This document shows, piece by piece, positions 38,593-40,384 of a stretch of 64,000 nucleotides of DNA; the stretch's first letter is position 1, and every line of letters starts with the position of its first letter. The translations under genes and the position numbers were made by a program. This DNA comes from Syntrophales bacterium (GTDB lineage: Bacteria; Desulfobacterota; Syntrophia; Syntrophales; PHBD01). The stretch spans positions 3,648,001 to 3,712,000 of the forward strand of contig OY764159.1 of the NCBI GenBank assembly GCA_963668175.1. The letters are read 5' to 3'. The notes beneath the pieces are model-generated. The model had not been told where the DNA came from. It saw only the letters and a program-made list of their open reading frames with translations, and made no database searches.

Positions 38593-38760
38593 CTTGGTTT
38601 CTGCATCCAGGAACACGGTGTAAATCCGTGGCGGTCCCGCCGCTGTAATCGGTGAGGATCTTCACCTTGGGCTGTAAGGCCGGTCACTGCCGGGGTCAAC
38701 TCCGGCGGGAAGGCTGTGAAGATTCGACGAACCGAGAGCCAGAAGACCTGCAGAAGCAAG
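38593..38760 (+). ncRNA. Cobalamin (B12) riboswitch
   Basis: AGGAA-CACGGTG-TAAATCCGTG-GCGGTCCCGCCGCTGTAA, TCACTG...GGGAAGGC, and B12-box GAGCCAGAAGACCTGC; P1 CTTGGTTTCTGCA pairs with TGCAGAAGCAAG. Confidence 0.92.
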
Positions 38761-38783
38761 CGTAATCCGGAATCCGATGGCAA

Positions 38784-38827
38784 AGGGTTCCGACGGACGA
38801 TTTTCCGTCTGTCGGGACCCTTTTTTT
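38784..38827 (+). terminator. Riboswitch expression-platform intrinsic terminator
   Basis: GGGTTCCGACGGACG/CGTCTGTCGGGACCC stem followed by T7. Confidence 0.85.
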
Positions 38828-38858
38828 ATTTTACAAACCTAAGGAAAGGAGATTGAAG

Positions 38859-38966
38859 ATGAAGAAAACGACAGAGAAGAAGGAGATCATTGCCTACAGG
38901 AAGAGCTGCCCGGCGAAAGGAACGGGACTCTCCCATTACATTCTGATGGACAGGAAGGGAAAGTGA
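38859..38966 (+). CDS. cbpA: Modified-peptide precursor CbpA-like (35 aa), not in ORF track
   Basis: MKKTTEKKEIIAYRKSCPAKGTGLSHYILMDRKGK; AGGAG RBS; TGATG overlap with the radical SAM gene; RKSC...GTGLSHYILM matches my recollection of the CbpA family. Confidence 0.85.
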   Translation: MKKTTEKKEIIAYRKSCPAKGTGLSHYILMDRKGK

Positions 38967-40384
38967 TGGCCGCAAAGAAGAGCGGAACGGCGAAGGCGGC
39001 GGCCCCCTCGCGGGGCCGCTTCGTCAATACGGGCGACGGCCCATCCCTCCATCCTATCGACATCGGACACCCGGAGTACATGGCCCTCGTCGATCCCGAC
39101 ACGGCTTTCTGGTCTCTGGTGCACCGGTCAAAACTGGCCGATATCCTCTCGGACGGCAGACTGGCCTCAAGCTATGCGAAGAAACGAGGGACGTTTGCCC
39201 GGGAGATGGATATACTGCGATTCGGGCTGAAACCGTCGGCGGTTTATTTCAATCCCACCGAACGGTGCAACATGAATTGCACCTACTGCTATATCCCCGC
39301 GAAGATGCGTCGGAAGGGCAAACATATGCCGGAGCGGAAACTGTTGCAAGCCCTGGAAATACTTAAGCAGCACTTCCATAAGACCCTTCCCAAGGGTTCC
39401 GTGCCCCAGATCATCTTTCACGGAGCCGAACCGCTTTTGAACCGGGACGCCGTCTTTGCCGGTATCGAGGCCTACGGCCGAGATTTTGCCTTCGGCATCC
39501 AGACCAATGCGACTCTGCTCGACAGCGCCGCCGTAAATTTTCTAACAAGCCGCCGGGTCAGCATCGGCATCTCCCTGGATGCCCCCACGGCCGCCGTCGC
39601 CAACCGGACCAGGAAGACCTGGGGCGGCCGCGGCACGTTTGAAGAAGTAAACGAGGCTATGGAGCGCCTCAGGGGCTACGACGGATGGAGTGTCATCTGC
39701 ACAGTAACAGGCGCCAATCTCCGTCACCTCACCGGTATGATCGATTATTTCCACGGCCGGGAGGTTCCAACCTGCCTCATGAACATCCTGCGCTGCACCC
39801 TGGCGCCTTCCCGCAGCCTCAAGCCCGCCGACCGGACAGCAGCCCGATATTTCCTTGCGGCCCTCGACCGGAGTTACGAACTTTTCGAGCAGACGGGCCG
39901 TAAATTGATCGTCGGCAATTTTGCCAATATCTTACTTGCCATTGTTGCACCGGCAGCCCGGCGGTTGATGTGCGACATCTCGCCCTGCGGCGGAGGCCGC
40001 TGCTTCTTTGCGCTCGCCCCCGGAGGCGATCTTTTCCCGTGCAGCGAATTCATCGGTCTTGACCGCTTCCTGGGTGGAAACATCTTCCAGGACGACCTCT
40101 CCGGCGTTCTGCAATCGGAGCCATTCCAGATGGTCACCGGAAGGAAGGTTGAAAATATTGAACCATGCCGCCATTGCGCCATCCGCCATTTCTGCGGATC
40201 GCCATGCCCTGCCGAGGCTTATGAAATGAACGGCGGCATGGACCAAAGGGGTGCCTTCTGCGAATTTTACGAGGAGCAGACGCAATACGCCTTCCGCATC
40301 ATCGCCGACGGCAAGGCCGATGCCTTTCTGTGGGACGGGTGGGATAAGGGATTAAGGGATTCTTTCCGGCTCGACGCCGACTGA
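38966..40384 (+). CDS. cbpB: Peptide-modifying radical SAM/SPASM enzyme CbpB-like
   Basis: CNMNCTYC, FHGAEP, QTNATL, SLD; SPASM cysteines PCGGGRC...PC...CRHC...FCGSPC...FC. Confidence 0.85.
   Translation: MAAKKSGTAKAAAPSRGRFVNTGDGPSLHPIDIGHPEYMALVDPDTAFWSLVHRSKLADILSDGRLASSYAKKRGTFAREMDILRFGLKPSAVYFNPTERCNMNCTYCYIPAKMRRKGKHMPERKLLQALEILKQHFHKTLPKGSVPQIIFHGAEPLLNRDAVFAGIEAYGRDFAFGIQTNATLLDSAAVNFLTSRRVSIGISLDAPTAAVANRTRKTWGGRGTFEEVNEAMERLRGYDGWSVICTVTGANLRHLTGMIDYFHGREVPTCLMNILRCTLAPSRSLKPADRTAARYFLAALDRSYELFEQTGRKLIVGNFANILLAIVAPAARRLMCDISPCGGGRCFFALAPGGDLFPCSEFIGLDRFLGGNIFQDDLSGVLQSEPFQMVTGRKVENIEPCRHCAIRHFCGSPCPAEAYEMNGGMDQRGAFCEFYEEQTQYAFRIIADGKADAFLWDGWDKGLRDSFRLDAD

Follow-up and report, generated by a model that had tools for sequence, protein, structure and literature searches.

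The locus considered here lies in a Syntrophales bacterium, within a window of 64,000 nucleotides (the whole stretch of DNA that was analysed, positions 3,648,001-3,712,000 of contig OY764159.1), and comprises a Cobalamin riboswitch, an intrinsic terminator, the precursor-peptide gene cbpA, and cbpB, a gene for a radical S-adenosylmethionine (SAM)/SPASM maturase. These four elements are present and conserved together, and they are given below with their immediate surroundings in window positions.

38557..38585, plus strand: candidate sigma-70 promoter (TTGATT, 17 bases, TATAAA), weak and picked out by eye, which would start RNA just before P1
38584..38769, plus strand: Cobalamin (corrinoid) riboswitch aptamer, Rfam RF00174, 80.9 bits, E 2.4e-18
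38630..38643, plus strand: P5/L5 hairpin, the predicted 5' kissing-loop partner, placed by the Rfam alignment
38768..38792, plus strand: P13 hairpin of eight pairs with a nine-base loop, L13, the predicted antiterminator; -11.1 kcal/mol, z -3.3, covariation in 45 rows
38782..38831, plus strand: intrinsic terminator, a hairpin and T run that takes its 5' arm from the 3' strand of P13, with eight paired bases in common
38859..38966, plus strand: cbpA, precursor peptide of 35 residues with a conserved Cys followed by G-L-S-H-Y; TIGR04164, 55.7 bits (cut-off 35)
38966..40384, plus strand: cbpB, radical SAM/SPASM maturase of 472 residues; TIGR04163, 695.8 bits (cut-off 375), PF04055 and PF13186
40439..43177, minus strand: convergent hybrid histidine kinase gene, assigned by domain matches, which marks the end of the unit without belonging to it; it does not recur as a neighbour across 44 related loci

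The riboswitch match spans the full RF00174 model (positions 1-189), far above the gathering score of 31.5, and is the sole Rfam match in the whole window; the P1 strands lie at 38593-38604 and 38750-38760, with P13 immediately 3' of P1, and a consensus scan of the region gave no promoter. The terminator hairpin has 18 pairs, with a run of T behind it (38782-38823; -32 kcal/mol, z -7.7). The cbpA open reading frame (ORF) has a single Cys and is preceded by a ribosome-binding site at 38842-38852, its stop codon (38964-38966) overlaps the cbpB ATG at 38966, and the kinase gene ends 54 bases past cbpB. No transporter or protease lies inside the riboswitch-cbpA-cbpB unit, and the host genome holds one CbpB above cut-off and one CbpA-motif peptide. 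An earlier note on this DNA had claimed a complete cobalamin riboswitch with a terminator platform, a 35-residue single-Cys ORF, a coupled radical SAM/SPASM gene, a CbpA/CbpB assignment, an operon end at the convergent kinase gene and an absence of export or processing genes, and all of this was borne out; the profile checks that it suggested, with the TIGRFAM CbpA/CbpB and Rfam Cobalamin models, all gave matches above cut-off.

The locus is a member of the catalogued, uncharacterised CbpA/CbpB family, as the cut-offs of NCBIfam TIGR04164 (cobo_pep, CbpA) and TIGR04163 (rSAM_cobopep, CbpB) are both passed by adjacent and coupled genes, and the host pair shows no sequence-level difference from these families. 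A literature search, with subscription journals mostly outside its coverage, returned no study of CbpB, no paper on TIGR04163, TIGR04164 or cobopep, none on the chemistry or purpose of the family, and none on its Archaeoglobus fulgidus member AF_2204; the accessible part of PMC13692751, which names PDB 5wgg as CteB, deals with TIGR04463/CrpC and not with CbpB. The nearest CbpB relatives, at 72-77% identity, come mostly from Syntrophales, Smithella or Deltaproteobacteria records. The homologue search gave 78 cbpB loci, including 44 close relatives (at least 56% identity), and a CbpA ORF precedes cbpB in 43/43 close loci tested, L054 being left out as it is cut inside cbpB. When loci from two genome samples were added, 97 of 99 sequences showed the CbpA motif Cys-x(4-7)-G-L-[S/T/A]-H-[Y/F] (the misses are L054 and L192), with four to seven residues between the Cys and a core in which G, L and H are fixed. 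CbpB carries the CxxxCxxC radical SAM motif and SPASM cysteines, and its SAM cysteines C101/C105/C108, together with eight SPASM cysteines, are kept in 97/97 sequences. As for an N-terminal recognition element of the kind that binds precursors of peptides that are synthesized ribosomally and modified post-translationally (RiPPs), Pfam gave no PqqD match in CbpB, and an Atlas lead of 0.87 connects it to a cluster in which 11% of the members carry PqqD.

The best solved relatives of CbpB are anSME (PDB 4k36-4k39) and CteB (PDB 5wgg/5why), at E 4.8e-44 and 8.8e-49, respectively, with the family profile. The eight SPASM cysteines of CbpB are spaced like those of anSME. In thioether-forming enzymes of the CteB/PapB type one iron site is left open, and since CbpB, unlike these, keeps all eight cysteines, a Cys-thioether is probably not its default product. 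CbpB also scores far below the cut-offs for ranthipeptide/sactipeptide maturases (PapB, 128.6 of 340; SCIFF, 87.1 of 425) and, judged by these profiles, lies outside the ranthipeptide family, while on the MftC model, whose cut-off is 265, it reaches 54 bits. Pyrroloquinoline quinone (PQQ) and mycofactocin are small molecules cut from peptides, and cbpAB resembles their clusters in having a short conserved peptide, a radical SAM/SPASM enzyme, a proposed small-molecule end product and no export; those clusters, however, have their own peptidases and tailoring enzymes, none of which recurs beside cbpAB. An exported antibacterial RiPP was ruled out, there being no transporter, protease or immunity neighbour in the 44 loci clustered, and so was a leader-peptide artefact, as CbpA persists in archaea and within cob operons in which the scan gave no riboswitch. 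A remoter CbpB-like clade (P0030, P0039, P0040 and P0055) scores 267-338 bits on TIGR04163, below its cut-off and far above other families, and five distant SPASM loci contained no CbpB. Several assemblies have two cbpB copies on different contigs (L013/L027, L017/L022, L049/L051, G058), which may reflect duplication or a binning error.

The leader of cbpAB has the structure that distinguishes the activating type of corrinoid riboswitch. According to the available part of PMC10653944, the activating Alkalihalobacillus halodurans cobT switch, which responds to cobinamide, uses P13 itself as the antiterminator, with a strand that P13 and the terminator have in common, whereas in the repressing switch the antiterminator is a separate structure. 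Here, too, one strand belongs to both hairpins, serving as the 3' side of P13 and as the 5' arm of the terminator, and the two are mutually exclusive; the coexisting P13 and terminator of a repressing switch (Priestia megaterium metE type) are not seen. An L13-type loop motif stands ahead of the CbpA gene in 50/74 bacterial sequences (in the remaining 24 leaders the motif is absent, the sequence incomplete or the platform another one), and in all 50 motif-bearing loci P13 shares at least five paired bases with a far more stable terminator. When 45 of the 46 distinct rows were aligned without gaps, with the structure drawn from the window's own sequence and with counts inflated by kinship, 85.8% of the P13 cells pair and two-sided changes occur at seven of the eight pairs; this paired fraction was reached by 0/500 shuffles, and slid controls were lower. 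The GG of L13 is invariant and, by eye, complementary to the CC of L5; invariant bases yield no covariation. Strand sharing, covariation and the A. halodurans precedent together argue that cbpAB is very likely induced by corrinoid through an ON switch, and the expression under B12 limitation claimed in the earlier note is probably wrong. In both systems the controlled genes may be taken to concern the lower-ligand step; here, in anaerobes that are Syntrophales-like or related to these, they encode a peptide and its maturase, and the platform is repeated in 50 loci.

Among the bacterial loci scanned, a Cobalamin match lies upstream of cbpAB in 13/13, 9/12 and 10/14, and several of those that have none sit inside cob operons; none was found in six archaeal loci. 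The acidobacterial cbpAB leaders L048 and L053 have other platforms. A second Cobalamin riboswitch directly follows cbpB at L052:9595-9787 and L053:7380-7571, where it leads cobU and a TonB receptor gene, and in L038, L039 and L042 divergent riboswitch pairs lie between cbpAB and cobC/U/T/S. In archaea (L187:2915-3982, L194:2933-3838 and, similarly, L186, L188 and L189), a divergent gene for a protein of 300-355 residues with an N-terminal ribbon-helix-helix domain precedes cbpA, and cobT follows cbpB in four such loci; this protein could be a regulator that replaces the riboswitch.

The host genome, a single contig scored as 100% complete, provides a metabolic frame for the cassette. It has six Cobalamin matches, which lead cobC-cobU-cobT-cobS-cbiB, btuC/D with two TonB receptor genes and cbiZ, a cobD-cbiP fusion, and cbpAB. 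It carries btuB, btuFCD, cbiZ, cobD-cbiP, cbiB and cobU/T/S/C, one ThiC gene adjoining thiD, and two tetrapyrrole methylases above cut-off, and neither bza genes, BluB over cut-off nor CbiD were found in it. By gene content, then, the host appears able to import, strip and rebuild cobamides but has no known base synthase. It has 25 matches to the B12-binding domain, of which 22 exceed the cut-off; the majority of the matches lie in frames 440-690 residues long, and they suggest many cobamide-dependent enzymes. Because there is no CbiD and there are only two tetrapyrrole methylases, the host would build no corrin ring in need of cobalt, yet it keeps cbpAB; and since it lacks a known base synthase, a cassette switched on in the presence of corrinoid would fit the gap, which is not true of a starvation-induced cobalt chelator. 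Two Cobalamin matches at G000:C1:3105829-3110900 (L092), separated by 2 kb, are followed by btuC/btuD, a TonB receptor gene, cbiZ and tonB, with btuF divergent, a set that, as annotated, amounts to full corrinoid uptake and remodelling. The fusion of a CobD aminotransferase and CbiP/CobQ (857 residues) stands behind its match at G000:C1:787282-790323 (L093), and a weak match of 39.1 bits at G000:C1:3391602-3391720 (L012, L094) lies near smpB and a phage-type integrase gene. On inspection, the leader of cobC-U-T shows separate hairpins.

Clustering of the 44 close loci made cobT the commonest cob neighbour of cbpAB, followed by cobU, cobS, cobC, cbiP, cbiB and btu genes, and no recurring protease, exporter or oxidase was found beside the pair in these loci. 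A cob or btu gene lies within 3.5 kb of cbpAB in 24/98 loci. cobT is directly downstream of cbpB in 14 of 98 loci, 90 of which had at least 500 bases of room downstream, and the 14 come from both domains: seven are Syntrophales-type, three belong to family f55 and four are archaeal (of 25 archaeal loci). The CobT proteins linked to cbpB have Tyr/Phe and Met at two positions that we take to be base-selecting; BzaF-linked CobT has the same residues, so these are non-discriminating. In a few loci cbpAB adjoins cbiX/cbiM or cbiK (L097/L129, L046, L119), and at L021:7697-10582 and L031:5546-8327 cbpB is followed by thiF/thiG/thiH/thiE, which in L021 stand behind a thiamine pyrophosphate (TPP) riboswitch.

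The distribution of CbpB was compared with that of the known base-supply genes. Of 401 genomes sampled from the host's phylum, 36 carry CbpB, as do 36 of 301 from the archaeal phylum of G401. In the former, cobT is present in 35 of the 36 CbpB genomes, the host included, against 40 of 60 CbpB-negative ones (the first 60 of 365 negatives). Exactly one ThiC-family gene was found in 36/36 CbpB genomes, and two distinct genes in 11/60 negatives, not counting G025, whose one ThiC gene is split over two contigs. A quick ThiC tree was built from 60 rows, which represent 30 of the 36 CbpB genomes, the 11 doubles with both of their copies, and eight singles. Each double contributes one copy to a clade with support of 100, which also takes in one single; the clade's members often lie beside cobT, cobS or cbiA, and no row from a CbpB genome falls inside it. 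A profile made from ten members of this clade, called BzaF-like here, matched 76/401 genomes of the phylum, 0/36 with CbpB and so 76/365 of the others (Fisher p 5.5e-4 by genome; p 1.3e-3 by genus, with no genus in common). Families f38 and f51 hold both CbpB and BzaF-like genes, never in one genome, and in the order of G031 (15 genomes) the sole CbpB genome has no BzaF-like gene and five others have one. A further 41 CbpB genomes gave a ThiC-family match in 38 and a distinct second gene in none (one identical duplicate and one split gene). In the archaeal sample, one ThiC-family match was obtained for each of the 36 genomes with CbpB, and among the first 44 of 265 CbpB-negatives 28 have at least two, 14 have one and two have none.

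Record names point to a possible link with producers of one particular cobamide. CbpB is named in records of Archaeoglobus, Geoglobus and Ferroglobus, including A. fulgidus AF_2204, and also of Desulfomonile tiedjei. A. fulgidus is said to be a producer of 5-methylbenzimidazolyl-cobamide. In the accessible part of the supplement to PMC6461909, D. autotrophicum and D. propionicus are given as makers of the same cobamide (there credited to Krautler 1988), and bza genes are entered as 'not found' in D. propionicus, D. tiedjei and Desulfobacca acetoxidans. Neither D. propionicus nor D. autotrophicum was among the CbpB record names returned, and no paper on methylbenzimidazolylcobamide was among the literature matches listed. 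By arithmetic alone, the Leu side chain (four carbons) and the imidazolyl-methylene of His (four carbons, two nitrogens) in the L-x-H of CbpA add up to the C8N2 skeleton of 5-methylbenzimidazole.

From the observed anatomy, conservation and co-occurrence we infer a regulation, a chemistry and a product for cbpAB. Without ligand the terminator would form, as structure and covariation suggest; a bound corrinoid, perhaps cobinamide, would stabilise the L5-L13 kissing loop and P13, block the terminator and turn the genes on. CbpB would then modify the C...G-L-[S/T]-H-Y core of CbpA by means of a SAM-derived radical, as expected from its family, and the modified CbpA would be the source of a lower-ligand base activated by CobT, as the genome profile and gene order suggest. 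For this proposal, in which CbpB converts CbpA into the precursor of a lower-ligand base for CobT by a Bza-independent and corrinoid-induced route, we put the chances at about even. CbpAB would thereby replace the ThiC-like BzaF/BzaAB route, in analogy to the peptide origin of PQQ and mycofactocin. The likeness to BzaF/BzaAB, as described in the available parts of PMC7617358 and PMC6461909, lies in a proposed oxygen-free supply of base to CobT through radical SAM chemistry; those enzymes are ThiC homologues acting on aminoimidazole ribotide (AIR), whereas CbpB is a SPASM peptide maturase, and a BzaF-like gene and CbpB were not found together in any genome examined. CbpB has neither ThiC-family nor BluB homology; it is thus not a member of the known lower-ligand synthases (BzaF, BzaAB, BluB) and could work alike. 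The base might, speculatively, be a benzimidazole such as 5-methylbenzimidazole, and to free it from the peptide, additional turnovers or housekeeping enzymes encoded elsewhere would be required. In its fullest form, which we offer as a tentative possibility, CbpAB would be a third lower-ligand route beside BluB and Bza, in which a SPASM enzyme, switched on by incomplete cofactor, fuses Leu and His side chains into 5-methylbenzimidazole for CobT in Archaeoglobi and many bza-less anaerobic bacteria.

A number of observations weigh against a lower-ligand role. Freeing an aromatic base would take several steps, yet no protease or oxidase recurs beside cbpAB, and in 74/98 loci no cob gene lies within 3.5 kb, the flank in 54 of these being only ~1.5 kb long. 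The mutual exclusion of CbpB and BzaF-like genes is not significant at the family level (two shared of 15 and 31 families, counts read by hand, p 0.15), kin not being independent, and the label BzaF-like is a reading of the tree and the gene order. Lacking BzaF is also common, since 28/40 cobT-positive, CbpB-negative genomes have no BzaF-like gene either. The archaeal contrast in ThiC, in which second ThiC-family copies of any type were counted, probably follows lineages. BluB exceeds its cut-off in 4/76 CbpB bacterial genomes, and CbiD is present in 33/36 CbpB genomes of the phylum and in 53/72 overall, so that a role in de novo synthesis is possible. G299 has its only ThiC-family gene (L129:4980-6266) in the same cob cluster as cbpAB, between cbiM and cbiQ and two genes past cbpB, and in the tree it groups with thiD-linked ThiC. 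Finally, the accessible supplement to PMC6461909 gives bzaFC for the 5-methylbenzimidazolyl-cobamide maker D. autotrophicum, which speaks against a simple rule equating CbpAB with 5-methylbenzimidazole.

Three rival explanations were weighed. If the modified CbpA stays a peptide, it may act as a corrinoid chaperone, a store or a partner of a nucleotide-loop enzyme, induced on corrinoid arrival, with its invariant His as a possible ligand to the cobalt of cobinamide or of cobamides in the base-off state; a processing enzyme would be unneeded, and none was found, and the ON layout of the leader, the invariant His and Cys and the linkage to cobT and cobU all agree with such a role. It leaves unexplained, however, the absence of BzaF-like genes from 36 + 41 CbpB bacteria and the single ThiC match in 36 archaea, unless these are phylogenetic, and we regard it as rather doubtful. 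The family-level p of 0.15, the majority of loci apart from cob genes and the counter-example of D. autotrophicum would instead suit some other corrinoid-linked small product (a loop component, a modifier of cobamide enzymes or a signal), the BzaF pattern then being lineage history; the recurrence of cbpB-cobT adjacency in two domains of life and the two mixed families that never carry both genes in one genome speak against this, and it seems unlikely.

A chelator of cobalt or metal, produced when B12 is limiting and feeding corrin synthesis, is said to be the idea of the family's curators; the earlier note, likewise, named cobalt/corrinoid handling as one example of a role. Cys and His are metal ligands, CbiD accompanies CbpB in most genomes of the phylum, and cbpAB stands beside cbiX/cbiM or cbiK in a few loci, all of which agree with a chelator. 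It is nevertheless improbable, as the leader layout predicts expression with corrinoid present, the host is without ring synthesis, cobT is the commonest cob neighbour and no exporter was found. The intracellular, corrinoid-linked role claimed in that note is supported, and of the options it named, the comparative evidence favours a cofactor precursor, in the lower-ligand branch at cobT, over cobalt handling.

Upstream of the unit, positions 34089-38518 hold genes for an M14 peptidase, a 273-residue ORF, an extracytoplasmic function (ECF) sigma factor and zf-HC2 anti-sigma factor, and ORFs of 138 and 88 residues, the three ORFs having no family match. The M14 peptidase gene (34089-34982) is the closest peptidase, ~3.6 kb upstream and beyond the sigma/anti-sigma pair.

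The family itself was already catalogued; what is new here is the genome profile and a testable lower-ligand hypothesis, and the value of the locus lies in offering a testable function for CbpB. The cbpAB platform also suggests that nature holds a large collection of corrinoid switches of the ON type; this class is described from one example in the accessible part of PMC10653944. In the available part of PMC6461909, bza genes are tied to four benzimidazoles, namely 5,6-dimethylbenzimidazole (DMB) and three others, and not to 5-methylbenzimidazole, and no bza gene is found in at least one maker of the corresponding cobamide. If CbpAB fills this gap, it would be a peptide-derived route to a vitamin component, with a B12 building block cut from a RiPP, and would imply new radical chemistry; it would, moreover, allow better prediction of cobamide structure from genomes, which is relevant to organohalide respirers such as D. 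tiedjei.

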